A stretch of DNA of 64,000 nt from Chloroflexota bacterium (GTDB taxonomy: Bacteria > Chloroflexota > UBA11872 > VXNJ01): assembly GCA_965261345.1 (NCBI GenBank), contig OZ253449.1, positions 1,728,001-1,792,000 of the forward strand. The letters are read 5' to 3'. Under the pieces are notes generated by a model, which had not been told where the DNA came from, did no database searches, and saw only the letters and a list, made by a program, of their open reading frames with translations. This document shows positions 749-53,958 of the stretch, piece by piece; the stretch's first letter is position 1, and each line of letters starts with the position of its first letter. The position numbers and the translations under genes are program-made.

Positions 749-2056
749 TCAAACGGCGGTTTGACCGGTCGGCGCCTCAGGCCCTGGGGACTCGGTTGCA
801 GCGCCCGCTATCTCCGGCTCGGCAGCGGGAGAGGGCTGCGGTGTCGGGGTCGGTTTGGTCGTTACCGTCACCGTAACGACGCTGGGTTCGATCGATAGCA
901 CTTCGACCCGGGCCGGGGCGCTGACCATTGGCGTGAGGATGTATACACCTTCCGAGGGTGCCGGGCCCAGTTCGACGCGGGTTGAAACATCGCGCGGGGT
1001 CAGCCCGAACACCGCCACACTCAAGCCTTCCAGTACGAGATTGGCCACCGGTGGCGAGATTTGGGCCAGATACTGTGGCGGCAGGTCGAGTTCGATCACA
1101 TCGGCCAGGGCGACCGCCGAAACGATCGGGTCGACGTCCACAGTCACCCGGAAGCGTTGCTCCGGGTTGACCAGCTGGACCCCTTCCGGGGGCACCAATC
1201 CGGCCTCGGTGACCGCGGTCTGGCGTTGGCCGCGGATTATTACGGTCTCGGTAAAGACCGATTCGATCTGTGCCACTGCGTCGGGCAGCCCCGAAATCTC
1301 GGTGGTGGCCGGTACAACGTCGGTGGCCACGACCGCGAATCCGGGTAACGGACTTCCCAACGTGGCGATTGCCACGGGCACTGATTTGATGATTGTCGAT
1401 TGCGAAACCGGAGCGCTAACCGAGTAGAGGCTGGGCTCAAATTCAAGATTGGGAATTTCCCGGCCCTGCACGTCAAGCGCCCGCGGGACCAACTGCACCG
1501 CCTGCGCTTGATCGATTCCGCTGGCGATAAGTTGCACCTGCACCCGGTCGATTGCCGCAACCGCCGGCTCGGGCCCGGTGATCTGGGTCAGCGGAGGTTC
1601 GACCCTAATCCGATCAAGGTCAATGGAAAAACCGGCGGCCGGAGGGTTGTCGATAACCAACTCAACCGGTCGCGTCCGGGTCACAATGGCAGTTAGCGAA
1701 ATCGGCACGCTGGCCGGACGTACGTCAACCACCTCGACCGAATCGGCGGCGGTCACAATCAAATTGACTGCGATCAGGTGGTTGCCCGGACCGAGTTCGT
1801 CCATGTGCAATTGGGCGGTCAAGTTGCGCACCGTGACCTGGTCAAGGTCGTCTCGCAGTCCCTGCAGGACCACGTCGACCGGGAGCGGATCCAGGGTGGG
1901 TATCAGATTGGGGCCGAGGCCGACTAGATCGACTGGTATGTTGGACACGGCGAAGTTGGTAATCCGCGGATTCTGCTCGAGGGTGACGCCGATCCAGACC
2001 GCGAACCCGAACGCGATTGCCGCCCAAAAACGCCAATTGGCCCCGCCCCGAAACAG
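749..2056 (-). CDS. cdaR: CdaR/YbbR-like regulator of diadenylate cyclase; start probably non-canonical (CTG 2056 or ATC 2104)
   Basis: Repeated YbbR-like units (VEPPLTQITGP, VVPATTEISG, ISPPVANLVLEG); directly downstream of cdaA; in-frame TM segment NWRFWAAIAFGFAVWIGV lies upstream of the track's GTG at 1948. Confidence 0.8.
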   Translation of the reverse strand: MFRGGANWRFWAAIAFGFAVWIGVTLEQNPRITNFAVSNIPVDLVGLGPNLIPTLDPLPVDVVLQGLRDDLDQVTVRNLTAQLHMDELGPGNHLIAVNLIVTAADSVEVVDVRPASVPISLTAIVTRTRPVELVIDNPPAAGFSIDLDRIRVEPPLTQITGPEPAVAAIDRVQVQLIASGIDQAQAVQLVPRALDVQGREIPNLEFEPSLYSVSAPVSQSTIIKSVPVAIATLGSPLPGFAVVATDVVPATTEISGLPDAVAQIESVFTETVIIRGQRQTAVTEAGLVPPEGVQLVNPEQRFRVTVDVDPIVSAVALADVIELDLPPQYLAQISPPVANLVLEGLSVAVFGLTPRDVSTRVELGPAPSEGVYILTPMVSAPARVEVLSIEPSVVTVTVTTKPTPTPQPSPAAEPEIAGAATESPGPEAPTGQTAV

Positions 2057-2093
2057 GCGTCGGGCACGCCAACGCGCCCGTCTCGACGATCGC

Positions 2094-2933
2094 CTACCGC
2101 TGATTGCGGACCAGCCAGGAAGGTCTGTGGATCCAGCGCCGCCGGCGCTGGATCCGGGAGGGCGCCAGTATGGCCTGCAGGCGTCGGCGCAGTTGTTCTT
2201 CGGTTAAATGTTGGGCTAATTTGCCGTCCGCGGCCAACGCGATTCCGCCGGTTTCCTCGGAAACCACCACCGCGACGGCGTCGGTGACCTCGGTGATCCC
2301 CAGGGCGGCGCGATGCCGAGATCCAAGATGGCGGGCGCTGGTTGACTCGGCGGTCATCGGCAAAATTGAACCGGCCGACAGGACGGTGCGGCCGCGGATG
2401 ATTACCGCCAGGTCGTGCAGTTCCGAATTGGGAAAGAATATCGACAGCAAAAGGGCGGCCGATAGCCGTCCGCCGATCTCGGTGCCGGTGCCGGCATAGT
2501 CGGCCAGTCCGACGTCGCGTTCAATCACTACTAGGCCACCCCACGAACGGCGCGAAAGCTCGGATGCGGTCCGCGTTATCGCGGCGATCGTCTGCTCGTC
2601 CTCCCACGCGCCAAAATGCCAGGCAAACCCCAATGTGGTGCTGGATCGCCCCAATCGCTCAAGGACCCGCCTGATCTCGGGCGCGAATACCACCGCAACC
2701 ATCAAAATCAACGAAGGCGCGGCATTGGCCAACCAGGTGGTAAGCGGGAACTGGAAGAAAACCCCCATCACGAACAGGAGTAGCACCAGGACCAGCACCC
2801 CGCGCAGCAGGATGTCGGCCAGGGTGTTTTGAAATACCGATAGACCTATGTAGATGACCAGCGAGACAATGACGATCTGCAGTAGTGCGAAAAGATTGAA
2901 TTCGCCCGCCAGATAGGTCACCTGATCGATCAT
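2094..2933 (-). CDS. cdaA: Membrane-bound diadenylate cyclase CdaA/DacA
   Basis: Three N-terminal TM helices, VFAPEIRRVLERLG, LHDLAVII (DGA-equivalent), GSRHRAALGITE, VVVSEETG. Confidence 0.92.
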   Translation of the reverse strand: MIDQVTYLAGEFNLFALLQIVIVSLVIYIGLSVFQNTLADILLRGVLVLVLLLFVMGVFFQFPLTTWLANAAPSLILMVAVVFAPEIRRVLERLGRSSTTLGFAWHFGAWEDEQTIAAITRTASELSRRSWGGLVVIERDVGLADYAGTGTEIGGRLSAALLLSIFFPNSELHDLAVIIRGRTVLSAGSILPMTAESTSARHLGSRHRAALGITEVTDAVAVVVSEETGGIALAADGKLAQHLTEEQLRRRLQAILAPSRIQRRRRWIHRPSWLVRNQR

Positions 2934-2951
2934 GCCGCCGGTGCGCCCGCC

Positions 2952-4354: not shown

Positions 4355-4455
4355 GTCCCGGTCGGCCGCTGCCGTCGACCTGCTAAACCGCGCCGGTTCC
4401 TGTAACCTTGGCAGGTAGCCGAACATTTCTGGCTAGTTGTGAGTCTTAAAGCGCA

Positions 4456-13446: not shown

Positions 13447-13450
13447 CTCC

Positions 13451-14767: not shown

Positions 14768-14897
14768 TAGGTTTCGCTAGCCGGTTTCCGGGGCCGAGAA
14801 GATTCTGGCCAAGCACAATTGGCCAATGGGCATTATCAGTTAGCGATTGGCAAAGTGGCTAGATTTGGGCTGCCGACCGGGAAGTGCGCGAATTAGC

Positions 14898-15539
14898 CTG
14901 TTTGCCGACCGCTGCGATGCCGGCACCCGACTGGGGGTCAAGCTACGGCGACAAGGCATCCGATCGGGATTGCTGTTTGGAATCCTGCGCGGCGGACTGG
15001 TTGTAGCGCGGTCGGCCGGTGCTGAACTTGAATTGCCAGCCCACGGATTGGCGGTTCTAAAAATCCGCGCACCGCGGCAGGACGAGCTGGCCATCGGTGC
15101 GGTCACTGCAACCGGTCCGACCTATATCAATCAATCGTCCATTGACCGGCTTCGGGTGAAACGCCAATACCTGGATGCCGAGCTGGCCGATCGCCAACGG
15201 GCGGCCCAAGAGCTGCAGCAGCAATTCGGCGTGCTCGATCCGGGAGCGATCGCGGCCGCTGATTCGGTGGTGGTAATCGACGACGGCTTAGCGACCGGGG
15301 CCACCGCGATCGCGGCCGCGGCCTGCCTTTCCCGGTTGGGCGGGAAGGAATTGATCATCGCCGCCCCGGTTGCCCCTCCGTCGACCGTGCGGCTTCTGCT
15401 GGCGGCGGGGTTTGATCGCGCGGTCTGCCTGCGCACGCCGGCCGATTTCTATGCCGTGGGACAGTTCTATGCGCAGTTTTTGCCGGTGGGACAAGCACAA
15501 TTGAGGGAATTGGCAATCGGGCCAAAACACCTTCCGTAG
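14898..15539 (+). CDS. Phosphoribosyltransferase-family protein; start uncertain (CTG 14898 or TTG 14847)
   Basis: FADR.DAG N-terminus, LRGG, ELAIGAV, VVVIDDGLATG PRPP loop, AVGQFY. Confidence 0.8.
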   Translation: MFADRCDAGTRLGVKLRRQGIRSGLLFGILRGGLVVARSAGAELELPAHGLAVLKIRAPRQDELAIGAVTATGPTYINQSSIDRLRVKRQYLDAELADRQRAAQELQQQFGVLDPGAIAAADSVVVIDDGLATGATAIAAAACLSRLGGKELIIAAPVAPPSTVRLLLAAGFDRAVCLRTPADFYAVGQFYAQFLPVGQAQLRELAIGPKHLP

Positions 15540-17020: not shown

Positions 17021-17701
17021 TTAAGCGGTGTCCAGCCGGGCCAGCAGCGGCAACTCGCCGCGGTCGGGAAGGCGATCAAGGTAGAGCCGATCACGCCGCG
17101 CCGCTCCCACGATGGCAACCAGGAGCGATCCCAGAAATGCGATCGCGGTGACCAATCCGACCGCGATCGCCTCGGCCAGGGCGGCCTCCAGATCAAGCCG
17201 CGAATCCAGGTCGATAACTGCCAGATGGGCGATTTCGGCAATCGCCGGCAGCAGGATGTGAGCGTCGCTGCCGAGTGCCTCGGCCGCGGCCTGGGCGGCC
17301 AGCCGGGCGGTCTGCTGGTCATGGGACCGCGCGTAAAAAGTGAGTCCGCGATGGGTGCGTTCAGCGCTAAGCAATGCACCAAACGATTCAGCGTCGAGGT
17401 GTATGTCGTACTCACTGACAATGCGGTCACTGGCCAGCCGGGCAAAGGATGATCCGATCACCAGCTGCTCGAGATCATCCATTAGGTAATCGATCGCCAC
17501 GGTGCGCGAGATTTCGACATCGTAGGCAGGTGCCTGCGCGCCGTCGGGGACCTTGAAGCTGACCAGGATCTGGGCCCGGCCAATGTAGTCGGGTGGGTTC
17601 AGCATCGCCCAGGCCAGACTAATAGCCAAGGCGGCAAGGGTGACCAACCCGACGGCCAGGCGATTGCGCCGAAGAATTGCCAGCAGGCTGTCAGCGTACA
17701 C
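17021..17701 (-). CDS. Wzz/CpsC-like chain-length regulator
   Basis: LAILRRNR + TM + P.Y...AQILV N-terminus and second C-terminal TM; GTG 17701 overlaps the upstream GT stop. Confidence 0.65.
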   Translation of the reverse strand: MYADSLLAILRRNRLAVGLVTLAALAISLAWAMLNPPDYIGRAQILVSFKVPDGAQAPAYDVEISRTVAIDYLMDDLEQLVIGSSFARLASDRIVSEYDIHLDAESFGALLSAERTHRGLTFYARSHDQQTARLAAQAAAEALGSDAHILLPAIAEIAHLAVIDLDSRLDLEAALAEAIAVGLVTAIAFLGSLLVAIVGAARRDRLYLDRLPDRGELPLLARLDTA

Positions 17702-18860
17702 GATTGACCTTAGGTTGTTTGGTTGGGGCGCGACCGAGATCGTGCGACCAGGTCCCCAAATTATTGATGTAGGCGGAGAGTTCGCTGGCAAATCGCGCCA
17801 CTGAAAACTTTTGCGCGTGGTCAACCAGGGTGCCTGGATCAAACGACCCGGCATCGAATTTCTCCAGCGTGGCAATCAGCGAGGGCGCCGTGGGCTGGTC
17901 GAAAAAGACGCCGGTGCGATCCGGCAGCACCGTTTCCAGGGCGCCCCCGCCGGCGAAGGCGATCACCGGCCGACCGGCCGCCTGGGCCTCGACCGGTACG
18001 AGGCCGAAGTCCTCTTCACCGGGAAAGATCACCGCCCGGCAGCGGGCCAGCTCATGGGCAAGACGCTGCTCGCTGACCCGCCCTGCAAATTCAATCGTGG
18101 GACCGGAAATGGATCGCAGATCTGGTTCGGCCCGCCCGGCGCCCAGAATTTTGAGTCTGAGTTTGAGCGCGTTGCAGGCGCGGATCGCCACGTCTATCCG
18201 TTTGTAGGGCGCAAGTCGGGAAACGAGCAGCAGGTGATCGCCGATTTCGGCCGCCGGGGCCGGTGCGAACTGCTCGGTGCGCACTGGTGGATAGATGATG
18301 TCGGAGCGGCGCCCGTAGTACCGCCTGATGCGCTCGGCCACGCACCTGGAGATGGCAATGAAATAATCGGTTCGATCGGCCATCATCTTGTCCAATCGAC
18401 GCAGACCCTCCAATCCCAGGCGGACCGCACCATCAAGGGCCCTGGGATAGTCGCGCTCGGCGGCCAGGTAGCGTTGCGAATCCCAAAGATAACGCGGCGG
18501 GGTCAGGCAGTAACAGACGTGAGTGGTATTGCCATTGGTGGGGATCCAGCGACAGAATCCCGAGGCGTTGGAAATGATTACATCGGCGTCGCTTATCCAC
18601 CAGCGGGCAAAAGTGGCCGCATAAGCTGGCAAATAGCGGCGGTGGTGGCTAAATACCGCCGGCAGGACCTGCATCAATGAGGTGCGCACGTCCAGCGACG
18701 CAAATTCTTCGTCAAGGGCGTCCGGGTCAAATATCGACGTGTAGATTGGCGAATCGGGCCACAATCGGGCCATTTCAAGCAGCGCCCGCTCGGCCCCACC
18801 CATCTGGTTTAGCCAGTCGTGGACCAGGGCAACCCGGGGCCGGTGGTTGGATCGGGCCAT
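17691..18860 (-). CDS. Glycosyltransferase family 4
   Basis: VALVHDWLNQMGGAE, IIYPPV, SRLAPYKR, EDFGLVPVEAQAAG. Confidence 0.92.
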   Translation of the reverse strand: MARSNHRPRVALVHDWLNQMGGAERALLEMARLWPDSPIYTSIFDPDALDEEFASLDVRTSLMQVLPAVFSHHRRYLPAYAATFARWWISDADVIISNASGFCRWIPTNGNTTHVCYCLTPPRYLWDSQRYLAAERDYPRALDGAVRLGLEGLRRLDKMMADRTDYFIAISRCVAERIRRYYGRRSDIIYPPVRTEQFAPAPAAEIGDHLLLVSRLAPYKRIDVAIRACNALKLRLKILGAGRAEPDLRSISGPTIEFAGRVSEQRLAHELARCRAVIFPGEEDFGLVPVEAQAAGRPVIAFAGGGALETVLPDRTGVFFDQPTAPSLIATLEKFDAGSFDPGTLVDHAQKFSVARFASELSAYINNLGTWSHDLGRAPTKQPKVNRVR

Positions 18861-20332
18861 CAGTAGGCCCCCTCCCCTTTGAGCACCGCCGGAATCGTGC
18901 GCAGCAGGATTTTGAGGTCGAGACCCGGCGACCAGTGTCCTACGTAATAGGTGTCGAGCATGATCATTTCCTCAAAGCCCAAGTTCGAGCGTCCGCTGAC
19001 CTGCCAGAGTCCGGTAATCCCTGGTGCGGCCAGCAGACGGTTGAAGGCAAATTCATCGTATGCGAGCACTTCGTCGGGGATCTGCGCGCGCGGCCCCACC
19101 AGGCTCATCTCCCCCCGCAACACGTTAAGCAGTTGCGGCAGTTCGTCCAGCGAGGTCTTGCGCAGCCAGCGCCCGACCCGGGTGACCCGCGGATCGTGGC
19201 GTGGTTTGAAGAGAGCCTGATTGCGAGCCTCGGGGAATACGTCGTAACGCGCCTGCGGGGCTCCCTGGACCATCGAACGGAACTTTAGCATCCGGAACAT
19301 CTCCCGACCGCGACCCACCCGCTGCTGTCCAAAGAGCGCCGGGCCGGCCGAGTCGAGCCGTATGGCGATCGCGGTCGCGGCCAGGACTGGGCTAAGCAGC
19401 ACCAGTGCGGTCGCGGCCAGGGCGATATCTAGACCGCGCTTTAGGGCCGCGTTGAATCCGGTTATCTGGTTCCGCGATATCGTAAGCAACGGAATTCCGG
19501 CCACCGCTTCGGTCCTGACCTGCCCCGCCTGGAGGGCCAACAAGTCGGGTACCAGGGTGAATCTGAGCACGCGTCGACGGCAAATTTCGATCAGTTCGTT
19601 AACGTGCGAACTATCTTCCAGCGGTAGGGCGATTACCAAACGATCGGCCGCATGGGCATCCAACACGGCCTCGATCGATGCCAGCCCGCCGAGCCGGTCA
19701 AAGCGGCCGAAATTGCGCGGATTATCTTCGGAATGATCGACGAAACCGACCATTACCATGCCGGCGCCGGCGTTTCCGCGGATCTGCTGCATGAGCATCT
19801 TGGCCAGGGTTCCGCGCCCGATCACGATCACCCGCTCGCAACCGATGCCGCGTCGAAAGCGGGATACGTACCAGCGGTGCACCAGCAGTCGCAGCAGCGC
19901 CACGATCAGCACCGTGGCCACCCCGAGATAGGCGAACATGAGTCGCGACGAAGGAGGGAAGGCCTCGCGCACCAGGTAGGAGGCAACGATCACCGCCGCC
20001 TCTGCCAGCAATCCGGCCAGGATGATCTTGCCGATCTGGTCCAACCAGGAACTTAGCGCCGCCCGGCGGTAGAGACCAAAGGCTGCCAGCGCGGCCAGCA
20101 TGGCACCTCCGAATACGAGCCCGACGAGGCCGAAATCGATTAGCGGAACATACAACCCGGGGGAAATCGCCCCGCCGAGTTCCAACTCGTAGCGCAGGCC
20201 GAAAGCCAGTAGCCAGGCTATCGCCACCGCGGACAGGTCCAGTCCCGGCAGCATCTTCTGGCGCCGCAGCAGACGGCGCTCAATATGGGCCGGCCCGCGG
20301 CCACCGTCGGTGCCCGGTGACGTCGGAATCAG
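18860..20332 (-). CDS. Polyprenyl-phosphate sugar phosphotransferase (WcaJ/CpsE-type priming transferase); start uncertain (CTG 20332 or ATG 20254)
   Basis: [54 protein letters not shown]. Confidence 0.92.
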
Positions 20333-21474
20333 GTCTCCAGGGCCCGTTGGTAGGCCAACAGCGCCCCCTGCGCGGTTTTCTGCCAGGTAAAGCGCCGGGC
20401 CTGGAGTGGGCCCTGTGCTCGTAGGGTTGCGGCGGTCGACGGGTCGTTGCAAATCTGGACTAGGGCGGCGGTAATTGAATCAATGTTATTGGGGTCAAAT
20501 AGGATTCCGGCGTTGCCCAAAACCTCGGGCAGGGACGAGGAATTGGCCGCCGCAACCGGGGTCCCGCAGGCTAAGGCTTCCAAGACCGGCAGTCCGAACC
20601 CCTCGTAGATGGACGGATAGACGAACGCTTCGGCGGCCGAATACCACATCTGCTTTTCATGTTCGGCAACATACCCCGGGACGATGACCCGATCGGCGAC
20701 GCCGGCGTTACGGGCAAGCGCGCTCAGATCGATATCGCCCCATCCGCGGCCGCCGGCGAGCACCAGCCAACCCGGGTAGCCCTGCCGGCGCATCCGGGCA
20801 AAGGCCGAAATCAGGCGGGCCAGGTTCTTGCGCGGTTCGATGGTTCCCAGGAACAGCAGGAAACGCTCAGGCAGCTCCCGATCGCGCCTAAAACGGGCCA
20901 GTTCCGCCGGGTCGCTAACTTCCGCGAGGCCGTCCGCCAATCCCGGATAGGCAACTATTAGGCGCTCGTTGCCGATTCCAAAATGGGTGGCGACGTCCTT
21001 CCCGGTGGCCCGTGAGTCGACCAGGATTGCCGATGCCCGCCTGGCCGACCGGGCGCACGCGACTCTCAGGTAGGCGCGGCGTCTCCAGGGATGGGCATGC
21101 GGCGTGGCGATAAACGAAAGATCGTGGATGGTAAGTACCTGCCGACAGCGAGATAGCTGCGGGGAGACGTTGAGCAGACCGTGCAGGATCTGGACGCCGG
21201 CTCTATTTGCCGCCAGTGGCAGACCGGTTTGCTCCCATCCGATCCGCAGCCAGGGTTGGCTGCCGGGAAAAGGCGAGCGGATGAGTCTGGCTGAGCCGAG
21301 TTCGGGCAGGATCCGGGCGTCAAAGTCGGTGTTGCAGAAAACGACGTAATCATGTTCATCCGAATGCCCGCCGAGCAGTTGGGCGATCAGATTGCGGGCA
21401 TAGACGCTGACGCCGGCGTTGCGGTAGCCTTCGTTCGAATGCATGCAGGTGGCGTCGAGCCCGATTACTGCCAA
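20329..21474 (-). CDS. Glycosyltransferase family 4
   Basis: TIHDLSF, GTIEPRKN, YPSIYEGFGLPVLEALACG. Confidence 0.93.
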   Translation of the reverse strand: MAVIGLDATCMHSNEGYRNAGVSVYARNLIAQLLGGHSDEHDYVVFCNTDFDARILPELGSARLIRSPFPGSQPWLRIGWEQTGLPLAANRAGVQILHGLLNVSPQLSRCRQVLTIHDLSFIATPHAHPWRRRAYLRVACARSARRASAILVDSRATGKDVATHFGIGNERLIVAYPGLADGLAEVSDPAELARFRRDRELPERFLLFLGTIEPRKNLARLISAFARMRRQGYPGWLVLAGGRGWGDIDLSALARNAGVADRVIVPGYVAEHEKQMWYSAAEAFVYPSIYEGFGLPVLEALACGTPVAAANSSSLPEVLGNAGILFDPNNIDSITAALVQICNDPSTAATLRAQGPLQARRFTWQKTAQGALLAYQRALET

Positions 21475-32328: not shown

Positions 32329-33009
32329 ATGACAGCCCCCGGTCAATCACCCGAGCCAACCCGACCACCGGTGTTGGGCCTTACCGGCAATATTGCCACC
32401 GGAAAGTCGTTGGTGGCGGCCCATCTGCGCGATCTGGGGGCGATCGTTATCGATTCCGATCTAGTCGTTCGGCGGCTCTATCGGCGGACCGACCCGGTCG
32501 CCCGGGCGGTCGCCGCCCGATTCGGCCCCCACCTGTTGGGGCCTGCCGGGATCGACCGACAGGCGTTGGGCCAGATGGTTTTCGGTAACTCCGAGGCGCT
32601 GACCGATCTGGAGGCGATAGTTCATCCCGCGGTGATCGCAGAAGTTGCCGGGGCGATTGCGCGTGCGCCGGCGGGCCAGCCGCACGTTATCGAGGCGATT
32701 AAATTGGCAGAAAGTGGCAACGCCCTTTTGCTGGATGAGCTCTGGGTCTTAGACAGCCCGCGGACGGCCCAGATTGGGCGATTGGTCAGTTCGCGCGGTC
32801 TCTCCCGGGAGCAGGTCCGCCTGCGGATCGATTCCCAGTCCTCGGCTGAAGACAAGCTTGCGCTGTTCGCGCGGCGGCGCCCCGGCACCAGGGCCCGCCT
32901 GATAGAAAATGCCGGTTCAAGGCAGTCGCTTTTGGCTCTGGTCGGGCGGTCCTGGTGGAATTTTCTGTCAGCTCGTGGCGGGGCAGAACTGGGCCGCATT
33001 CAATCCTGA
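32329..33009 (+). CDS. coaE: Dephospho-CoA kinase
   Basis: GLTGNIATGKS, IDSD, IDRQALGQMVF, LEAIVHP; ATG 32329. Confidence 0.92.
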   Translation: MTAPGQSPEPTRPPVLGLTGNIATGKSLVAAHLRDLGAIVIDSDLVVRRLYRRTDPVARAVAARFGPHLLGPAGIDRQALGQMVFGNSEALTDLEAIVHPAVIAEVAGAIARAPAGQPHVIEAIKLAESGNALLLDELWVLDSPRTAQIGRLVSSRGLSREQVRLRIDSQSSAEDKLALFARRRPGTRARLIENAGSRQSLLALVGRSWWNFLSARGGAELGRIQS

Positions 33010-34491
33010 TGCCGGTCCCTGGGCGAGGGTTGCGTAAGCGGCTTCGACCGCCGGTTGATGGTCGCCGACGACCAGGCTGACCCGCGTCCCGGAAATTCCG
33101 ATCAAGGCCGCCTTGGGACCGCCCTGCCAGATTGCCTCAGTTGGCGACACCACCTCGAAGCGGCCCTCGCCATACGCGTGATCTAGTCTGTTTTGGCTGA
33201 CGAAATCCAACATGGTGTGGTGGAAATCAGCGGCCGCCCGGGGGTCGGCGAACGCGGTCCGCAGAAGCAGCGCCGAATTTTGCCCGTTGCCAATCAACAC
33301 CAGGTGATCGTCCAACCAACCGATTGGTCCTGGCGTTCGCGAACCGCTGCGATTTGCAAACAAAACGCCGAGCGCGAATTGCCCCAGCGCGCCCTCGCCG
33401 GTTACCTGCCAGCAGGGTATTTCGGGGTCGCCGAAGTCGGCCAGATCGGAATCTGGTGCAATTTCCTGCCAGTCCCCCTGGCCAGTCGCCAGTAGCTGGG
33501 CGATTTGGGCAGTGCTCTGGGGCACCCGTTGGGGTTCGTAAAGGGCGTTGAGTGCTTCAATCCCGCCCCGCCCTAGGACCGCCAGTACGAATTGCGCACC
33601 GGTCTCATACGGGTAGATGAGCACGCTCTGCACGTATTGGCCGGCCCGGTCGAGCGGACCAGGCGGTGGGACCGGCGCGGCGAGCAGATCGGCAAGCTCG
33701 ACGAGTTGGGTAGCTGCCACGAGGCCGAAAACCGAGGCTTCGCCTTCAATGAGGGCCGAAAGTGCAAGTTGCCGATCGAATTGGAGCAACGGGATGGAGT
33801 TGGACAGGGTTGAAATGTCGAAATTGGATTGCTGCAGCGCGTGCACATACTCATGGGTGATGGTCAATAGGATCTGGGCCTCACGCGCCGGATCGGCAGA
33901 CTCAACGAGGTAGAGACGATCATCATCGGAAACATAAAACCCAAGGAGTTGCGCCGGAACCTGCTCGAGATAGACGTCGTCGAGCGATCGGCCGGGGGCC
34001 AGCACCCCCAGTGCCTGAAGGACCTGGTCGCGACTGACGACCTCGCCGGGGTCCTGCTCGGAAAGGTACGAGTTCACCAACTCGGTCGCCTCCTCCACCG
34101 TCACCACTAACGGCACCGGAGGGTTGCGTGAAAGTCCGCGCACGCTCTCGGCGGCCGCAACCGCAAGCAGGTAATTTCCAGACACCATCTGTTCGAAGTC
34201 ACTCGGCTCGGGTTCGCCCACGGCAGGGATGACCGTCGGCGTGGGTTCGGCGCCTCCCAGGACGGCCGTAGCGGTTGGCGCGTCCTCCAGCCGGTTCCCT
34301 GCCGGACCGGGTTCGGCCTCCTCAGGGATGACCGTCGGCGTCGGACCGACTTTGGTCGGCGCGGCAGCTGTCGCAATTGACGGCGGCGATTGCCCGGCAT
34401 CTTGGCAGCCGGCCAGCAGCAGCATCAGGAGGAGTGCCAGGCAGGCTGTCAATCGCGATAAGCACGGGGCCCGAACTGCAATCGGGGCGAT
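32968..34491 (-). CDS. Secreted lipoprotein with HExxH zinc-metallopeptidase-like motif; start ATC 34491 or TTG 34452
   Basis: LLAGC lipobox, Pro/Thr linker, GFY, THEYVHALQ, ALIEGEA, YPY..G..FV, P.ST. Confidence 0.7.
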   Translation of the reverse strand: MAPIAVRAPCLSRLTACLALLLMLLLAGCQDAGQSPPSIATAAAPTKVGPTPTVIPEEAEPGPAGNRLEDAPTATAVLGGAEPTPTVIPAVGEPEPSDFEQMVSGNYLLAVAAAESVRGLSRNPPVPLVVTVEEATELVNSYLSEQDPGEVVSRDQVLQALGVLAPGRSLDDVYLEQVPAQLLGFYVSDDDRLYLVESADPAREAQILLTITHEYVHALQQSNFDISTLSNSIPLLQFDRQLALSALIEGEASVFGLVAATQLVELADLLAAPVPPPGPLDRAGQYVQSVLIYPYETGAQFVLAVLGRGGIEALNALYEPQRVPQSTAQIAQLLATGQGDWQEIAPDSDLADFGDPEIPCWQVTGEGALGQFALGVLFANRSGSRTPGPIGWLDDHLVLIGNGQNSALLLRTAFADPRAAADFHHTMLDFVSQNRLDHAYGEGRFEVVSPTEAIWQGGPKAALIGISGTRVSLVVGDHQPAVEAAYATLAQGPASGLNAAQFCPATS

Positions 34492-34611
34492 GACTCACCT
34501 CCAAGCCGGGCAGCGCGATAGCGGGAAATTATCGTAGGTGAGGCGGGCCGGTTTCCGGGGTTGGAAACCGGCGGTAACCTGGTTGAAATGCAAGCTGAAG
34601 CGCAGGTTTAG

Positions 34612-40712: not shown

Positions 40713-40714
40713 AT

Positions 40715-42121
40715 TTAAGCGGGAACTGAGCTGGAATTGACTTTTTCGGCCAGCGCTTCGGCTGGTTCAACCATGATTTCGGCCAGGGTGGGATGCAGGT
40801 GCGGGATGCGGGCAAAGTCGCCGACGGTCGCCCGGTAGTGCATCGCCACCACGGCCTCGTGGATCAGGTCGGGACCTTCGGGGCCCAGCACATGAACACC
40901 GAGGAGCTCACCGGTTCGGCCGTCGGCCACCATTTTGACCAGGCCCTTGTTCTGCCCCATGGTAAGGGCCTTGCCCTGGTCCTCGAACGATTCGGTTGCC
41001 ACGATGACCGATTCATAGCGCGCCCGCGCGGCCTTTTCGGTTAGTCCGACGGTGCCGACCGCCGGGTCGGTAAAAACCGCCTGCGGAACCACCCGCAGAT
41101 CAAACTGCTGCGGCGGCTTGCCGGCCACGTTGTCGCCGATGATCTGGCCCTGTTGGACTGCGGTGTGGACAACCTGCAGCGGTCCGACTTCGCGGCCGAT
41201 GCAATCGCCGGCGGCGTAAACGTTGGGGTTCGAGGTCTGCATGAAGGTGTTTACCAGGATCCAGCCGCGTTCGGTTTCCACCCCGGCCCGTTCCAGCCCC
41301 AGGCCGGCGATTGCGGGGCGCCGTCCCAGCGCCACCAGGATCTCGCTGGCCGAAAATCGCGCCGGACCGGCGCCGGTTTCGAGCTCGACCTGCTTGGCGC
41401 CGTCGGGCGAACGCGAAAACCGCGTGATACGAGTGCCGGTAACTATCCGTATGCCCTCGCGTTTCAGGTAAACGGCCAGTTGCCGGCCGATCGCCTCGTC
41501 TAGGCCCGAAAGCACGTGGTCGGAGCGCTGGACCACGGTGACCGCGACCCCCAGCCGCGAAAACAACTGGGCAAATTCAAGCGCCACCGCCCCGCCGCCG
41601 ATCACCAGCAGCGAGTCTGGCAGGGCATCGAGGGTCTGGGCCTGGTCGGAATCGATATAGCCGACCGCGGCCAGGCCCGGCAGCAGCGGAGTAGCGATCT
41701 CGGAACCGGTCGTTACCGCGAAGTAGTCGGCGCTAAGGACCCGGCCGTCGACCTGGATCGAACGCCGGTCGAGAAACGAACCCCGGCCCTTGATCATCTC
41801 CACGTTGGCCAGGTTTTCGGCCGAGACCTGGCGGTAGCTGGCAAACTCTTGCACCAGCGCGTCCTTGCGGGCCCTGACCGCCGGCCAGTCAATCGCCGGG
41901 GCCGAGCTGTTGATTCCCAATGAGGCCGCTTCACGCACCAGCTGGGCGATTTCGGCCGATCGCAGCAGGGTCTTGGTCGGCATGCAGCCACGCAGGATGC
42001 AAAGTCCGCCGAATCGGTCGGCGGCCTCGACTAGGGCGACTCGCAAACCGTTGGCGGACGCCGTGCTGGCCGCGTGATATCCCGCCGATCCGCCGCCAAT
42101 TACGATGAAGTCGTAATGCAG
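40715..42121 (-). CDS. Flavoprotein disulfide reductase (dihydrolipoyl dehydrogenase/MerA-like); CTG start
   Basis: YDFIVIGGGSAG upstream of the track start, GGLCILRGCMPTK redox disulfide, YAAGD, HPTLAE; no C-terminal Cys pair. Confidence 0.88.
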   Translation of the reverse strand: MHYDFIVIGGGSAGYHAASTASANGLRVALVEAADRFGGLCILRGCMPTKTLLRSAEIAQLVREAASLGINSSAPAIDWPAVRARKDALVQEFASYRQVSAENLANVEMIKGRGSFLDRRSIQVDGRVLSADYFAVTTGSEIATPLLPGLAAVGYIDSDQAQTLDALPDSLLVIGGGAVALEFAQLFSRLGVAVTVVQRSDHVLSGLDEAIGRQLAVYLKREGIRIVTGTRITRFSRSPDGAKQVELETGAGPARFSASEILVALGRRPAIAGLGLERAGVETERGWILVNTFMQTSNPNVYAAGDCIGREVGPLQVVHTAVQQGQIIGDNVAGKPPQQFDLRVVPQAVFTDPAVGTVGLTEKAARARYESVIVATESFEDQGKALTMGQNKGLVKMVADGRTGELLGVHVLGPEGPDLIHEAVVAMHYRATVGDFARIPHLHPTLAEIMVEPAEALAEKVNSSSVPA

Positions 42122-42389
42122 CTTGCCGGGCTCCTCGGTTCGCAGGCCAGCCAGTGGCCAGGATTTTGTTGCTGGATTATCCCCGGCGCGGGCCCCCCGG
42201 GACCGCCGACCCTAGACTTTTTTAGGGCGGCAATGGTGGGCGTCAATTCCGTTCAGGTCCAAAGCCCGGTCCCTGCAACTTCCAACGGCCCGCCCGGGCC
42301 GATCGCCAACGCGTGGCCTAATTGACCTCCAATCTCCCCGGGTCGCCCGGTTTTCCGATCGCCGTGCCGCGGCCCCGGCGTCGCCCGGT

Positions 42390-43637: not shown

Positions 43638-43653
43638 CACCCCCCCCAACCCC

Positions 43654-44646: not shown

Positions 44647-45035
44647 CGCCGCCGCCAGCGGTCAATCCAGCCGGCCAACCGACCCGGCTCGGGGCGGTCG
44701 TCGATCGTGCGTCCTCGCCACATCTTGCCTCTTCTGCGCGAGCCGCCGCTCCGGCCGCGCCCGAGGGTGGAAACATAGGCGACAAAGATCATGAGTAAAC
44801 CGGCGGTCGCGCTTATCGGTACGATGAGCCGCATGAACGGAAACAGGGCCAGAAAAAGCGAGATCACTATCAAAACCGCGCCGGTGGTGGCCAGCTGCCG
44901 CGGGGATGAAATCCGATCGAGCACGAATCGACCCAGGCGGTCCAGTATGCCAACCGGCGGAGGTGTCCGTTCCGCCGATCCGCTGTCCCGCAGGATCTCG
45001 CGTACTTCATCTTCCCAGTCGCGCTTTTTGCCCAT
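44643..45035 (-). CDS. Small two-TM hypothetical protein
   Basis: MGKKRDWEDEVREIL, two TM helices, basic tail; ATGA overlap with the HD gene. Confidence 0.6.
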   Translation of the reverse strand: MGKKRDWEDEVREILRDSGSAERTPPPVGILDRLGRFVLDRISSPRQLATTGAVLIVISLFLALFPFMRLIVPISATAGLLMIFVAYVSTLGRGRSGGSRRRGKMWRGRTIDDRPEPGRLAGWIDRWRRR

Positions 45036-45126
45036 GTTCACCGAGCCTTATCGAGATTCCCGCCGAGGCGACCGACGGCCCCCCACTGTTTGGCGCGATT
45101 TTTGCACGCCACCGCGGCCGCCGATG

Positions 45127-46527: not shown

Positions 46528-46535
46528 GTTATCTC

Positions 46536-47936: not shown

Positions 47937-47972
47937 GCAAGGGTATCGGCATTCTAGGAGTCAGTTGGTCCG

Positions 47973-48755: not shown

Positions 48756-48757
48756 CG

Positions 48758-50782
48758 CTAGCTGGGAGCCCCCAGTACCGCGCGCAGCCGTAGCGGATCC
48801 GTTTCCGGCTGCTGGCACACGAATTGGCGGCAGACGTAGGCGGCCGGTCGACCGTTGACCGGCCCACGATCGGCCAGAAGCGGGACCGGAGAGTCCGACC
48901 CGACTGCGATCACCCGGTCGGCGCGCCAGTTTTGGCGCACCGCCGCGATCAACGCCCGGGTCAAGCAGTCCCCGGGGTCTCCCGCGATTGCAACCTGCTG
49001 GGCCTGCGGTTCCAGCCAGAGCATCGCCTGCAGCCACTTGGAAAATGCGGTTCCATGGCGAATGAAGGTTTCGCCCAGGCCCGGTATCGAGGCCGCGGCG
49101 CGCTCGCGCCAGACCGACTCGCCGGTGAGCCCCCAGATGCGCAGCATCAGGCGTGCCGCCATGGCGGCTCCAGAGGGAGTGGCATTGTCCTCGCGCCGCC
49201 GGGGGCGGACCACCAGGTCTGCCTGATCGTGGGCGGTGTCGCAGAGCCCGCCATCGGGATCGCCGAAACGCTCGATCATGGTTTCCGCCAAGGCGACGGC
49301 CCGATCGAACCAGCGATGGTCGAAATCGCTTTCATACAGGGTCAGCAGGGCGTCGGCCAATCCGGCGTAATCCTCGAGAAATCCGACTCCACTGGCCTGC
49401 CCGTCGGCCCAGGAATGCGAAAGGCGGTCATCTTGCAGTACTTGTTCAAGCAGGAACCGGGCGGCGCGTTGGGCTGCACCCAAGTAGGCCGGATCTGCGA
49501 GCGCGGCGCCGGCCTCGGCGAAGCTGGCCAGCATCATGGCGTTCCAGGAAGTTACCGCCTTGCGATCGGTGGCTGGCGGAACTCGGCGGGAGCGCGCGTC
49601 CAGCAGCACCCGGCGCGAGCGGTCAAGGAGCTCGGCCAGCTCACTTTCATCGAGTTGGCCGCGGTGAGTCCGAACCCCGCCTTCGGGCGGTTCGTGGAGG
49701 ATGTTGCGACCTTCAAAATTTCCGCCCAGGGTCACGTCGTAATAGCGGCAGAAATCCCCGGCATCTTCGCCCAGCAGCGACTCGACCTCGTCGAGATCCC
49801 ATACGTAGTACTTCCCTTCAACTCCCTCTGAATCGGCATCCTGGGCCGCGTAAAACCAGCCGTCGGACCCGGTCATTTCGGCCAGGATGTAGTCAAGGGT
49901 CTGCCGGGTAACTGACAGGTAGCGTGAATTCCCGGTCAGCTGCCAGGCGTGCAGGTAGCAACCGGCCAGCTGGGCGTTGTCGTAGAGCATTTTTTCAAAA
50001 TGCGGCACCAGCCAAACGGCGTCAACCGAGTAGCGGTGGAATCCACCGCGCAGTTGATCGAATATCCCGCCCCGAGCCATCTGGTCCAGCGAGCGCAGTG
50101 CGGTCGAACGCGCATCCTGGTCACCGCTCTGGGCCGAATAGCCAAGCAGGAAATCGATCGTCATCGCCATCGGGAATTTGGGATCGTCGCCCCAGCCGCC
50201 GTTTTCTAAATCGAAGCTGTTGCAGGCCGCCGCGGCGGCCTGGGCCAGCAGGTCGTTGGGCAAATCGGCCCCGCCCAGCTGCTCAAACTCACCCAGGCGA
50301 TCGAGCAGGCGGGCGGCTACGTCGTTTACCTCGCCGCGCCGTTCACGCCAGGAGGCGGCGATCTGTTCGAGCACCATCGCAAAGGAGGGCATCCCGTAGC
50401 GTGGCTGCGGGGGAAAGTAGGTCCCGCCAAAAAACGGCTCGCCGCTGGGTTTTAGAAATACACTCATCGGCCAACCGCCCTGCCCGGCGATGGCCATAAC
50501 CGCGTTCATGTAGATGGAGTCGACATCCGGGCGTTCTTCGCGATCGACCTTGATCGCGATGAAATCGGCGCCCAGCGCCGCCGCGATCGCCGGGTCCTCA
50601 AACGATTCGTGGGCCATAACGTGGCACCAGTGGCAGGCCGAATAACCAACGCTTAGAAAAATCGGCTTGTCCTGCGAAAGGGCGGCCGCGAATGCTTCCG
50701 GTCCCCATTCATACCAGGCGACCGGATTGTCGGCGTGCTGACGCAGATAGAGGCTTTTGGCGCGGGCGAGACGATTGGGCAC
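48758..50782 (-). CDS. Thioredoxin-domain protein YyaL/SSP411 family
   Basis: NRL...SLYL.QHADNPV.W, CHWCHVM, KVDREERPD, VPHFEKMLYDNA. Confidence 0.93.
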   Translation of the reverse strand: MPNRLARAKSLYLRQHADNPVAWYEWGPEAFAAALSQDKPIFLSVGYSACHWCHVMAHESFEDPAIAAALGADFIAIKVDREERPDVDSIYMNAVMAIAGQGGWPMSVFLKPSGEPFFGGTYFPPQPRYGMPSFAMVLEQIAASWRERRGEVNDVAARLLDRLGEFEQLGGADLPNDLLAQAAAAACNSFDLENGGWGDDPKFPMAMTIDFLLGYSAQSGDQDARSTALRSLDQMARGGIFDQLRGGFHRYSVDAVWLVPHFEKMLYDNAQLAGCYLHAWQLTGNSRYLSVTRQTLDYILAEMTGSDGWFYAAQDADSEGVEGKYYVWDLDEVESLLGEDAGDFCRYYDVTLGGNFEGRNILHEPPEGGVRTHRGQLDESELAELLDRSRRVLLDARSRRVPPATDRKAVTSWNAMMLASFAEAGAALADPAYLGAAQRAARFLLEQVLQDDRLSHSWADGQASGVGFLEDYAGLADALLTLYESDFDHRWFDRAVALAETMIERFGDPDGGLCDTAHDQADLVVRPRRREDNATPSGAAMAARLMLRIWGLTGESVWRERAAASIPGLGETFIRHGTAFSKWLQAMLWLEPQAQQVAIAGDPGDCLTRALIAAVRQNWRADRVIAVGSDSPVPLLADRGPVNGRPAAYVCRQFVCQQPETDPLRLRAVLGAPS

Positions 50783-50855
50783 TATTGGGTTTGGCCATTA
50801 ATTTGCATGATGGAAGAATTTACCGGGCCATGTACCAGACCCAGGGTGATCGGTT

Positions 50856-51593
50856 ATCTCATACTTTGACCCGCCCGGCGTTTACGACCAGGCGGTCTTT
50901 CCCGCCGCCGGCCCCCAGCGACCATTCGTGGCCGCCAATTTTGTGATTTCCGCCGACGGATCTGCGCGCAAGCCGGGACCGGCCTATCGGCATTTCTCAG
51001 GCCCCGTCGACCGCCGTTCTTTCCGCCGCCTGCGAATCCACTTTGATGCCATCCTGCGGGGGGCCCGGACGCTGGAGATCAACCCGATTCGGGATCTTGC
51101 CAATCCGGCGATTCGTCGGGCGCTGGACGAACGCGGCCGGCGGATGCCGGTGGTCGTAGCGGTTAGCAATTCCGGCCAGATTCCAGATGAGGCCGGGCTG
51201 ATCCGCGGCGCCGACCCGCAGTTGCCGCCAATCTTGTGCGTACCCGAGAATGCCAAGGTTTCAGCAACGGTTGCCCGGGCCTGCCGGGTATGGCGCTTTT
51301 CCGGGCCCCGCCTGGACCTTGCCCGGGTGCTTGAACGCCTCGGACGCCAATGCGGAGTGCAACGAGTTCTCTGCGAGGGTGGACCGACGCTCCTGCGTGG
51401 GCTGCTCGATCAGGGCCTGCTCGACGAATTGCTGCTCACGATTGCGCCCTGCCTGCTGGGCGACCCGGACAAACTGACGCTGTTGGGTGGGCAGCTCCCG
51501 TTCACACCGACGACGGTGCCCGACCTGGAGCTGATCGCAGTGCGGTCCGAGGCCGACGAAGTCTTTTTGCGTTACCGGGTCCGCGCCGGTTGA
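50856..51593 (+). CDS. RibD C-terminal / DHFR-like reductase; start uncertain (ATC 50856 or GTG 50928)
   Basis: RPFVAANFVISADG, DAILRGARTL, LCEGGPTL, LDELLLTIAP. Confidence 0.8.
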   Translation: MSYFDPPGVYDQAVFPAAGPQRPFVAANFVISADGSARKPGPAYRHFSGPVDRRSFRRLRIHFDAILRGARTLEINPIRDLANPAIRRALDERGRRMPVVVAVSNSGQIPDEAGLIRGADPQLPPILCVPENAKVSATVARACRVWRFSGPRLDLARVLERLGRQCGVQRVLCEGGPTLLRGLLDQGLLDELLLTIAPCLLGDPDKLTLLGGQLPFTPTTVPDLELIAVRSEADEVFLRYRVRAG

Positions 51594-51597
51594 CCGG

Positions 51598-52410
51598 TTA
51601 CGGGTCGGTTGACCCGAATCGCTCAAGCGCGTTGTCGTATATCACGCACCGCAGCACTGCCAGGTAAGTTAGCACCAGCACCGAAGCCAAGCTGGCCACA
51701 ACCTGGGCCAACACCCCGAGCACGCCTCCATCGGACGAGATAAGGGAGGTAAAGATCGTCGCGGCGATGCTTGCCATCCAGTACATGAAGATTTCAGCGC
51801 CGGTGGCGCGGGCCAGGCGGAGCGACTCGCGCAGCAGATCGCGCAGGTCGAATCCGGTATCAACCAGCAGCGGGACGAAGTAGAAGCTGACGAAAACGAA
51901 TGCGATAAAAACGCCAAGGCCAAGCATCGCGGCCAGGATTCCCAGGGTCGGCGTGATCTGTCCGGCCGCCCACGCCACTGCGGCGGCAAGGCCCAGCAAC
52001 GCCAGCCAGAGAAGCACGAAGAGCGCGATTTGCAGCGATCGCCGTTCGATCGCCGCCAACCCCGCGCGCAGGTCGACCCGGTCGCCGCGATAGGACGCCA
52101 AGGCGTTGTACGTTATTCCAACCTCCAGGACCAGTCCGATTACGAAAAGGGCAATCAGGATCAGCGCCATGGATTTGGCGTAATCACCCAGTTCGTCGAG
52201 CAGCAGTCCGCCCGCGCCTTGGTCGCCGCCGGCAATGGCCGGTACCGCGGGGGCGAGCACCTCAGAGAGTGCGAAGCTGATTACGGTGCCTACCAGCATC
52301 CAAACCACCAGGAATGGGTTGTCGGAAAAAATCCCGTAGGCGACCCGGGCAAACGACCAGAAGCTCCAGGGTATGTCCCCAGGGCGCCTAGACTCTAATT
52401 CGTCGTTCAA
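51598..52410 (-). CDS. Multi-TM hypothetical membrane protein
   Basis: 270 aa with about six hydrophobic segments. Confidence 0.65.
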   Translation of the reverse strand: MNDELESRRPGDIPWSFWSFARVAYGIFSDNPFLVVWMLVGTVISFALSEVLAPAVPAIAGGDQGAGGLLLDELGDYAKSMALILIALFVIGLVLEVGITYNALASYRGDRVDLRAGLAAIERRSLQIALFVLLWLALLGLAAAVAWAAGQITPTLGILAAMLGLGVFIAFVFVSFYFVPLLVDTGFDLRDLLRESLRLARATGAEIFMYWMASIAATIFTSLISSDGGVLGVLAQVVASLASVLVLTYLAVLRCVIYDNALERFGSTDP

Positions 52411-52456
52411 ATGTGGGTATGCTTCCGGCGGGCAGGTTGACGAAAAATTCTAGGTT

Positions 52457-52780
52457 TTGACAGAACTTTCGACAGTGCCGGATCATAACCCGTCAGCCGT
52501 TCGACTGGCTGCAAGCGACAACGTCGCCACCCTGGTGAGGCCGGCCAAAGCCGGCGAAACGGTGGCGGTGATCGATGCGCGCGCGCACCGCGTCGTGGCC
52601 CGCGAGGACATTCCGTTCGGTTTCAAGATCGCAATTTCACCGATCGGGACCGGCGAAATGGTGGTCAAGTACGGGTCTCCAATCGGGCAGGCCACCCGAC
52701 CGATCGATGCCGGCCAGCTGGTGCATGTCCACAATCTGGCCGGCCTCCGGGCCGGCGGCGACCATCGGCGGCCGGCCTGA
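52457..52780 (+). CDS. SAF-domain small subunit of a UxaA/SuyA-type lyase
   Basis: DNVAT, IPFGFKIA, VKYG.PIG, G..VHVHN. Confidence 0.88.
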   Translation: MTELSTVPDHNPSAVRLAASDNVATLVRPAKAGETVAVIDARAHRVVAREDIPFGFKIAISPIGTGEMVVKYGSPIGQATRPIDAGQLVHVHNLAGLRAGGDHRRPA

Positions 52781-53958
52781 GCGCCGAGTTTGCCGGGTTC
52801 GCCCGCCCCGATGGATCAGTGGGAACCCGCAATCACGTGCTGATCCTGCCCGGTGGTTGGGAGTGCCAGCAGATCGTGAACATGGTTGAGGGCACGGTAA
52901 CTCCCAACTCGCCCGATCTTGGCATCGGCCGGATCCGACCTGACCGCGAGACCATTACTCGGATGCAGACCGGTCTGGCGCTCAACCCCAACGTCTACGG
53001 GGTGATCGTGGTGGCTGGCCTGGGTGGCATAAATGATGAACTTCTAAACGGCCAACTGGCCGCTGACGTCTGCCGCGAGGCCGGAAAACCGTTTGAGATC
53101 GTAGAACACGACGGGTGGCAGGCAATTGCCCACGGCGGCCAGTTGGCCGCCCGAATGGTCCATGCCGCATCTGCCCTGCAGCGGATCACGGTTCCGGCCA
53201 GCGCTCTCACCGTGGGGGTCAAGTGCGGCGGCTCGGACCCGACCTCGGGCCTCGCCGGAAATCCCGCCGTGGGTCGGATGTTCGACCGCGTGGTGGAGGC
53301 GGGTGGCACCGCCTTGTTCTCCGAAACGACCGAGCTGATCGGCGCCGAGCACGAACTGGCCAAGCGCTGCGTTTCCGAGGCCGTGCGGACCGAGTTGCTT
53401 GACCTGATCTCCGCCCACGAACAAATGGGGCGCTCGGTCGGGCAGGACATCCGCTCCATTAATCCGGGGCCGGCCAACATCGAGGCGGGGATAAGCACGC
53501 TTGAAGAGAAAAGCTTGGGGGCGATTCACAAGGCTGGCAGCGCTCCCCTACAGGGTGTCCTTGACTGGGCTCAACGCCCCGCCGGGAAGGGCCTGTACTT
53601 CATGCACAGCTCAGCCAGCAGTTACAAAGTCGTCCTTCCCGGCATGGCCGGGGCCGGCTGCAACTTGGTCTTTTTCCAGTTTGGCGGCGGCGGATCGCGG
53701 CGGCGGACCCTTACCGGCGGTGAGGGCATTGTGGCGCCGCAGGTCTGGGTGACCGGCAACCCGCGCACCGCTCAAAATATTCCCGATGGAATTGACTTTT
53801 CGGCCGGCGGGGCGATCATCGCCGGCCGAAAAGTCGCTGAGCTGGGCGATGAATTGTTCGAGCTGGTGCTCTCAATCGCCTCCGGGCAGCTGGCGCGGAC
53901 TGAAATGCTCCGCTTTTTCGATCCGGTGCAATATCACCTCCCCGGCCCCAACTTTTAA
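52777..53958 (+). CDS. UxaA/GarD/SuyB-type dehydratase or lyase large subunit; CTG start overlapping the upstream TGA
   Basis: FAGFARPDGSVGTRN, NPNV, KCGGSD..SG..GNP..G, SETTE, STLEEKSLG. Confidence 0.85.
   Translation: MSAEFAGFARPDGSVGTRNHVLILPGGWECQQIVNMVEGTVTPNSPDLGIGRIRPDRETITRMQTGLALNPNVYGVIVVAGLGGINDELLNGQLAADVCREAGKPFEIVEHDGWQAIAHGGQLAARMVHAASALQRITVPASALTVGVKCGGSDPTSGLAGNPAVGRMFDRVVEAGGTALFSETTELIGAEHELAKRCVSEAVRTELLDLISAHEQMGRSVGQDIRSINPGPANIEAGISTLEEKSLGAIHKAGSAPLQGVLDWAQRPAGKGLYFMHSSASSYKVVLPGMAGAGCNLVFFQFGGGGSRRRTLTGGEGIVAPQVWVTGNPRTAQNIPDGIDFSAGGAIIAGRKVAELGDELFELVLSIASGQLARTEMLRFFDPVQYHLPGPNF

Follow-up and report, generated by a model that had tools for sequence, protein, structure and literature searches.

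Putative initiation at CTG, ATC and other near-cognate codons in a Chloroflexota genome and its relatives

The closest described counterparts of the genes treated here are the near-cognate starts of translation table 11, the laboratory mutants of initiation fidelity and the stop/start overlaps of neighboring genes. Four-nucleotide overlaps of the ATGA type are a well-known form of translational coupling. According to bioRxiv 10.1101/063800, AUA, AUC, AUU and CUG initiate in E. coli at 1–2% of the AUG level, and the annotated starts of model genomes comprise 81.8% ATG, 13.8% GTG and 4.35% TTG, shares that leave about 0.05% for all other codons; in the annotations of Salmonella, E. coli and Bacillus, CTG makes up less than 0.01% of starts (PMC5714196). 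Regarding fidelity, mutations at A790, G791 and A792 of the 16S rRNA were reported to alter the function of initiation factor IF3 (PMC3082907), and mutations at A790, G1338 and A1339 to reduce the fidelity of initiation (PMC4611024). Our literature search found no published account of non-canonical starts in Chloroflexi. The present analysis concerns a stretch of 64,000 nucleotides (G000:C1:1728001-1792000, hereafter the window) of a single-contig Chloroflexota genome of 2.39 Mb and 63% G+C, in which an earlier note, made from the sequence alone, had claimed that five genes carry apparently necessary coding sequence upstream of their first in-frame ATG, GTG or TTG (here the canonical codons) and that CTG or ATC would be their best start candidates.

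The presence of coding sequence upstream of the canonical codons was confirmed as real and beyond chance. The reading that we favor, with a probability of roughly 0.7, is that these genes are translated from the near-cognate codons CTG and ATC, and from ATA and ATT elsewhere in the genome, by the ordinary initiator tRNA, as in other bacteria. Judged from sequence comparison, near-cognate starts would be needed in at least three, probably four, genes of the window and in four genes nearby. As with the near-cognate starts of table 11, the same codons (CTG, ATC, ATA and ATT) would stand at the normal start position, often behind a Shine-Dalgarno (SD)-like site. The genes and sites concerned, the first six rows with window coordinates and the last four with genome coordinates, are the following:

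749..2056, reverse strand: cdaR (YbbR-domain, Pfam YbbR), read from CTG 2056, which lies 37 nt past the cdaA stop; frame 749..2203
40715..42121, reverse strand: pyridine nucleotide-disulfide oxidoreductase (dihydrolipoyl-dehydrogenase-like), hereafter the disulfide reductase, read from CTG 42121..42119
42131..42136, reverse strand: GAGGAG, SD-like site 9 nt 5′ of the disulfide reductase CTG 42121, read from sequence context
50856..51593, forward strand: RibD_C-family reductase, from ATC 50856; frame 50850..51593
52457..52780, forward strand: UxaA/altronate-dehydratase small (SAF) subunit, Pfam SAF, whose TGA stop overlaps the CTG of the next gene
52777..53958, forward strand: UxaA large subunit, from CTG 52777, with a CTGA stop/start overlap
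1675155: rpe, candidate start ATA, with a 4-nt overlap (ATAG) with the upstream stop; its Pfam match begins 17 residues before the first ATG
1659417: HIT-family gene, candidate start CTG, at a column where relatives have TTG, TTG and GTG
1883781 or 1883787: lgt, candidate start ATT 1883781 or CTG 1883787; "IF.LIEIPW" is kept in four genomes, with the Ile encoded by ATH (ATA, ATC or ATT) in all four
1696225: cysS, candidate start CTG; its first ATG lies at least 9 residues into the Pfam tRNA-synt_1e match

Relatives retrieved by means of the IF3 of this genome were metagenome-assembled genomes titled uncultured Chloroflexota. Six other genomes, with a median protein identity of about 70%, belong to the same genus (g1, in family f1), and a sister family (f2) belongs to the same order. 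Syntenic segments of 446–480 kb from three genus genomes (G006, G003 and G002) were used for N-terminal alignments of 337 genes, 55 of which fall inside the window. A gene was flagged when its first canonical codon lay 7 or more columns past the canonical start of an ortholog that was not too close, the intervening columns being at least 50% identical. This rule replaced an earlier one (any 10-column window with 6 identities), whose 278 flags were mostly due to overlapping upstream genes and to the close pair G006/G003. The automated picking of a "best start column" wrongly chose internal Met and Leu columns, and its 6/109 was not used as a count. A stricter filter demanded at least five third-position differences, and at least as many as the sum of those at the other two codon positions.

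The start column of cysS, compared over loci L260-L285, is the strongest evidence for near-cognate initiation. This column holds CTG in 12 genomes (five of g1, one of g2, one of g4 and five of g5), two of the g5 genomes have a stop one codon before the CTG, and in family f2 the column is TTG or GTG in 9/9 loci. In genus g3, ATG lies two codons further on, with ATH at that position in G015. The present genome has CTG at 292 conserved internal leucine columns, and the four genus genomes agree on this codon at only 46 of them. Since ordinary leucine CTG codons are thus seldom kept and the cysS CTG is common to four genera, this codon seems to have been retained as CTG where relatives keep a start codon.

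Within the window, the open frame of the disulfide reductase (40715..42211, reverse strand) matches Pfam Pyr_redox_2 from residue 33, counted in the stop-to-stop frame, and no canonical start occurs until TTG 42046, which is codon 55, placed 22 codons after the Pfam match begins. A start at this TTG would therefore lose the GxGxxG motif that binds flavin adenine dinucleotide (FAD), which lies upstream of codon 55, as the earlier note had held. Upstream of codon 55, as far as the preceding stop, the frame offers three CTG and two ATH as start-like codons, and from CTG 42121, preceded by GAGGAG, the protein reads (M)HYDFIVIGGGSAG. The start column is CTG in 6/6 loci of the genus, with an in-frame stop five codons 5′ of it in three of them (G004, G005 and G006), and in other genera it is ATG in 5/6 loci, the sixth having GTG/TTG a few codons upstream. 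Between this CTG and the first canonical codon, the differences from the sister genomes were distributed over codon positions 1/2/3 as 2/2/13. It had also been expected that standard callers would truncate such proteins, and the public calls of the disulfide reductase in the genus do have inconsistent, often shortened N-termini (422, 441, 462, 473, 496 and 510 aa, vs. 468–481 aa in other genera). The closest cluster, at 96% identity, spans only 90% of the query, and its precomputed Pfam annotation contains none of the N-terminal Rossmann families.

The RibD_C reductase and the UxaA large subunit gave the same picture, and the claims made for both of them held. The frame of the former opens with an in-frame TGA followed by TCG GTT and then ATC 50856, and 24 conserved codons precede its first canonical codon, GTG 50928, among them the stretch FDPPGVYD...RPF with the RP motif, which is kept in four sister genomes. 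The ATC column is ATG in G006, G003 and G005, while G002 has ATG a few codons upstream, and the differences from sister genomes by codon position were 6/6/17, 5/5/14 and 8/7/14. In the UxaA large subunit, the Pfam GD_AH_second match opens at residue 103 of the frame, 7 residues ahead of GTG 52819 (codon 110), the first canonical codon; the CTG 52777 column is ATG in all four relatives (G006, G003, G002 and G005), and the differences were 4/4/9 and 4/3/9. The overlap with the upstream stop resembles ATGA-type coupling, in that both UxaA (CTGA) and rpe (ATAG) overlap that stop by 4 nt, and departs from it in that the overlapping start is near-cognate, with relatives having ATG at the UxaA start column.

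Base-calling or assembly errors could in principle have produced such apparent losses of start codons, an explanation that we consider scarcely credible. The assembly is imperfect, as the short-read contig of the best-covering metagenome run, which otherwise showed no other letters over window positions 40000-54000, carries an additional C at 43639. Over 50178-54000, the window was matched exactly by a contig of a second study, so that two runs from different studies showed 0 other letters over the stretch with ATC 50856 and CTG 52777; the suggested check for miscalls thereby came out in favor of the letters as given, and miscalls at the near-cognate sites are unlikely. Moreover, the CTGs of the disulfide reductase and cysS recur in independent genomes, and the changes at the start columns are substitutions, not indels; the read check did not cover cdaR 2056. 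As a separate observation, the extra C at 43639 falls just after the stop of an MFS gene at 43637 and may be a single-base assembly error. Elsewhere in this part of the window, positions 49807-50740, inside a gene at 48758..50782 (reverse strand), have a contig depth 10–50 times that of the flanks and many loose ends; they encode a very conserved domain that is also matched by contigs of other organisms.

For cdaR, CTG 2056 appears to be the best start candidate and is the weakest of the four window cases. The earlier note had relied on a transmembrane (TM) anchor encoded upstream of the canonical codon, and this part stood insofar as a conserved N-terminal hydrophobic stretch, WRFWAAIAFGFAVWIGVTL (recognized by eye), lies at most 36 codons upstream of the first canonical codon, GTG 1948. 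The differences by codon position from sister genomes were 5/4/18 and 10/5/24. The codon after the conserved CTG is GTG or ATG in G006 and G005 and TTT in the present genome; G003 has ATG further upstream, and G002 is likewise without a canonical start there. The claim is tempered by the start of the relatives at the adjacent codon.

Over the 337 aligned genes, a near-cognate start would be needed in eight (2.4%) of this genome, four inside the window and four outside it, and 6/8 passed the stricter third-position filter; for rpe the differences by codon position were 7/6/19. A codon that differs from ATG by one base occupies the orthologs' start column in the disulfide reductase, RibD_C, UxaA, rpe, HIT and cysS genes, and in cdaR it lies beside that column. 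The bias of the upstream differences toward the third position is, on this substitution pattern, what would be expected of a translated frame; a non-coding leader under conservation, or a different frame, would not be expected to show it. Five more rows that passed the filter (1599196 and 1639106, which are duplicates, 2034487, 1949953 and 1463726) were set aside as presumed transposase copies or gene fragments. The N-terminal alignments of 1599196-1600515 and 1639106-1640425 are identical, and the two are probably copies of one transposase. The coaD gene, with ATA at the relatives' TTG column, was not counted, a TTG four codons on costing one Pfam position. A set of other candidates (mltG, secF, ruvA, 17691..18971, 61441..63177 and 53955..55862) was discarded, their long open upstream stretches being explained by an overlapping upstream gene or their starts being canonical.

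In-frame stops occur 2–5 codons 5′ of the candidate codon in the RibD_C gene, in cysS of G003 and in the disulfide reductase of G004, G005 and G006. Because of these stops just upstream, other forms of recoding were also considered, namely a frameshift after an out-of-frame start, or translation through the stop that precedes the candidate codon. No positive evidence for either was found in the genes compared; the nearest ATG upstream of the RibD_C gene, as read by hand, is out of frame, a separate device would be required in each of eight unrelated genes, and the relatives simply have ATG at the column. This explanation is therefore held to be very improbable.

A further possibility is that translation begins at the first downstream ATG, GTG or TTG, with proteins shortened at the N-terminus or genes in decay. 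Gene callers do pick such starts, as in the disulfide reductase calls of 422–462 aa, and half of the eight changes, those in RibD_C, UxaA, rpe and HIT, are found only in this genome, as expected for recent damage. However, such starts would deprive the products of the FAD-binding GxGxxG, of the Ribul_P_3_epim profile up to position 17 and of about 10 or more positions of tRNA-synt_1e; the frames are otherwise intact, and the cysS and rpe genes are single-copy, as are lgt, cdaR, uxaA and the HIT gene. The upstream stretches, in addition, evolve as coding sequence, and the CTG is conserved across genera. We accordingly regard downstream initiation as improbable, and near-cognate initiation as the better account of these eight genes.

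Several points weigh against near-cognate initiation. The gene finder was crude (calling by dicodon score, with 2064 genes covering 84% of the genome), and the 53 flags raised by the ortholog-start rule were curated by eye. The relatives of cdaR start at the codon adjoining the CTG, not at the CTG itself, and this gene has no SD site. Three genus genomes have GTG six codons past the disulfide reductase CTG, and an NCBI call (462 aa) starts there. A canonical codon lies only 9 (HIT), 12 (lgt) and 4 (coaD) codons downstream, and Pfam does not force an upstream start in these genes. In favor of near-cognate initiation, SD-like motifs precede 5/8 near-cognate starts, 192/832 (23%) confident canonical starts and 288/2910 internal codons, two of the five motifs having been added after the cases were seen; the three a-priori motifs give 3/8. 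Near-cognate starts also seem commoner here (8/337) than those of table 11 in model genomes, including housekeeping genes such as cysS and rpe and a CTG kept over four genera, and this contrast of 2.4% with 0.05% rests on published annotations, which under-call such starts, and on a pipeline confined to the family.

Sister genomes of the genus had cases of their own. In G002 these were cdaR, an ABC ATPase (CTG), an amidase (ATH) and lgt; in G003, one ATH, one ACG and one CTG; and in G006, a hydantoinase and a zinc-ribbon protein, both with CTG. As a control, the same pipeline was applied to 400 kb of three genomes of the sister genus g3 (203 aligned genes, about 85% identity), where, after curation, G011 retained about one case and G013 and G017 two apiece, that is, about 0.5–1% per genome at half the divergence. 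The turnover of canonical starts was 6/30 well-defined columns in g3 vs. 44/95 in g1, where the start codon varied among the four genomes, and once scaled by divergence the near-cognate rates of g1 and g3 appear to look alike. The g3 cases and these similar rates suggest that the habit is family-wide, not specific to the genome or the genus. In one g3 gene, the peroxiredoxin-like 253194_253526 of G011, the conserved sequence reaches an in-frame stop in all three genomes, and the gene may be split or recoded.

The abundance of TTG starts mentioned in the earlier note was also found by alignment. TTG accounts for 21% of the 95 well-defined start columns here, the highest share among the genomes tallied, with 13–15% in the sister genomes and, as given in bioRxiv 10.1101/063800, 4.35% in model bacteria. 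For example, the TTG starts of secD (13451-14767) and of a gene at 62676-63635 are kept in all five genus genomes compared. Canonical codons stand at about 94% or more of the well-defined start columns. SD use is weak, with GGAGG before about 27/832 confident starts, and SD enrichment was dropped as a genome-wide test of CTG starts. An SD-like site precedes the disulfide reductase, RibD_C, cysS, rpe and HIT starts; a coupling context occurs in 3/8 genes (the CTGA overlap of UxaA, the 4-nt overlap of rpe and the 37 nt between cdaA and cdaR), and lgt has neither SD site nor coupling.

On this basis, initiation at the near-cognate codons would be weak but sufficient, aided by an SD-like site (disulfide reductase, RibD_C, cysS, rpe and HIT) or, in UxaA, rpe and cdaR, through coupling with the gene before. 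Such a habit, together with frequent TTG and rare SD sites, may be common to the whole family of the lineage. With TTG frequent and SD use rare, we infer that new losses of ATG would be tolerated, so that single-base changes of ATG to CTG, ATC or ATA could persist.

The hypothesis of low-stringency initiation in this lineage was supported only in part, by the near-cognate starts, the high TTG share and the low SD use; IF3, the initiator tRNA and the anti-SD sequence were ordinary, and g3 behaved similarly. Unlike E. coli infC, which starts with AUU, infC here starts with ATG; IF3 is present, and its Arg triplet and Tyr sites, which we take to be its fidelity sites, are kept. With these sites unchanged, and with a C-terminal R-to-N difference common to many phyla, IF3 was rejected as the cause. 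In G002, infC has AAG at the position of the ATG of the other three genomes, and ATH two codons upstream, an arrangement reminiscent of the E. coli gene. The initiator tRNA (G000:C1:1009514-1009588) lies about 450 nt past the 16S 3′ end and has its three anticodon-stem G-C pairs intact; it carries U1:A72, the usual initiator tRNA having a C1xA72 mismatch. The 16S anti-SD sequence, G1338, A1339, A790, G791 and G926 are unchanged. IF3 position 98, which by our own residue mapping falls within a segment listed as rRNA-binding in the structure of PMC5037330, is Q in the genus vs. H in 75/75 other sampled IF3s.

The proposed examination of infC, initiator tRNA and anti-SD thus returned largely ordinary features, and one 16S change came to light. 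In the 790 loop (G000:C1:1008300-1008321, locus L199), the genus has G at E. coli position 792, reading GGATTAGGTACCC vs. the near-universal GGATTAGATACCC. All six g1 genomes that have the region carry A792G, and none of 19 genomes from elsewhere in the family and order does. Across a phylum-wide sample of 401 genomes, the region was present in 177; it reads G in 5, all of this genus, and A in 172, from 103 other genera (170 without the unpublished G286 and G164). The 16S rRNA has 23 genus-specific fixed differences, 10 of them at sites where the other genomes agree with E. coli; among these 10, we take 830/856 and 1051/1207 to be compensated stem pairs and 452, 1031, 1032 and 1432 to lie in variable regions, and this presumed structural assignment leaves 792 alone in a conserved unpaired loop. 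The change should presumably mismatch the 785F/806R amplicon primers, and the genus may therefore be under-counted in V4 surveys.

It can be asked whether the ribosome of this genus has become less strict, with A792G, possibly together with genus-specific IF3 changes, lowering the rejection of non-AUG codons so that CTG and ATH starts accumulate. The structural account in PMC5037330 places the IF3 linker on positions 787-792 of helix 24 (h24), which is also touched by the C-domain, and has A790 stacking on the first base of the start codon. The papers cited tie 787-792 and A792 to IF3, A792G is confined to the genus in the genomes searched, Q at IF3 position 98 is specific to the genus among the IF3s sampled, and this genome has the highest TTG share. 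If true, this explanation would account for the repeated losses of ATG to CTG, ATC and ATA and for TTG at a fifth of genes. Nevertheless, the cysS CTG is also found in g2, g4 and g5, and g4 and g5 have A792 (g2 gave no match), so CTG initiation would be older than A792G. Likewise, g3, with A792, has, over 203 genes and half the divergence, about 1–2 such cases in each genome, no excess being apparent in g1, and co-occurrence proves nothing where a single evolutionary event is concerned. A less strict ribosome is thus considered unlikely, and ordinary near-cognate initiation is preferred.

The more specific idea, that the genus is a natural initiation-fidelity mutant in which A792G, at the tip of h24, beneath the IF3 linker and adjacent to A790, weakens the rejection of CUG and AUH, is somewhat more doubtful still. 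Like the laboratory IF3/16S mutants (A790/G791/A792, G1338 and A1339; PMC3082907 and PMC4611024), the genus is changed at 792. Unlike them, its A792G is natural, fixed and known from sequence alone, the other named positions are unchanged, and near-cognate starts also occur in relatives that lack it.

Three further genes of the window had been put forward, one as the fifth and weaker case and two as possible CTG fits:

32968..34452, reverse strand: HExxH protein with a lipobox, possible start TTG 34452; frame 32968..34494
14847..15539, forward strand: phosphoribosyltransferase, start TTG 14847, TTG 14865 or CTG 14898
20329..21474, reverse strand: GT4 glycosyltransferase, ordinary TTG start

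These genes do not carry weight for near-cognate initiation. From TTG 34452, the HExxH lipoprotein reads MTACLALLLMLLLAGC; it had no Pfam family match, and its orthologs are less than 45% identical, its start not being placeable by alignment. In the phosphoribosyltransferase, CTG 14898 adjoins the ATG of the relatives, and TTG 14847 and TTG 14865 lie further upstream. The glycosyltransferase, described as a priming transferase (20332) that would fit CTG but has canonical alternatives, carries TTG 21474 at the column where G003, G002 and G005 have GTG or ATG, a canonical start. The statement on five genes consequently holds for the disulfide reductase, the RibD_C reductase and UxaA, and probably for cdaR, on the basis of ortholog start columns and third-position bias, with the HExxH lipoprotein adding nothing.

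Gene finders restricted to ATG, GTG and TTG would mis-start such proteins, which distorts the annotation, the domain counts and the metabolic reconstruction of this uncultured lineage; some public calls of the disulfide reductase, for instance, are without the cofactor-binding motif. If A792G does affect start choice, the genus would be a natural experiment on how the contact between IF3 and helix 24 sets the fidelity of initiation. Moreover, the CTG start of an essential tRNA synthetase, kept over four genera, would represent clean comparative evidence for CTG as a selected start codon in bacteria.

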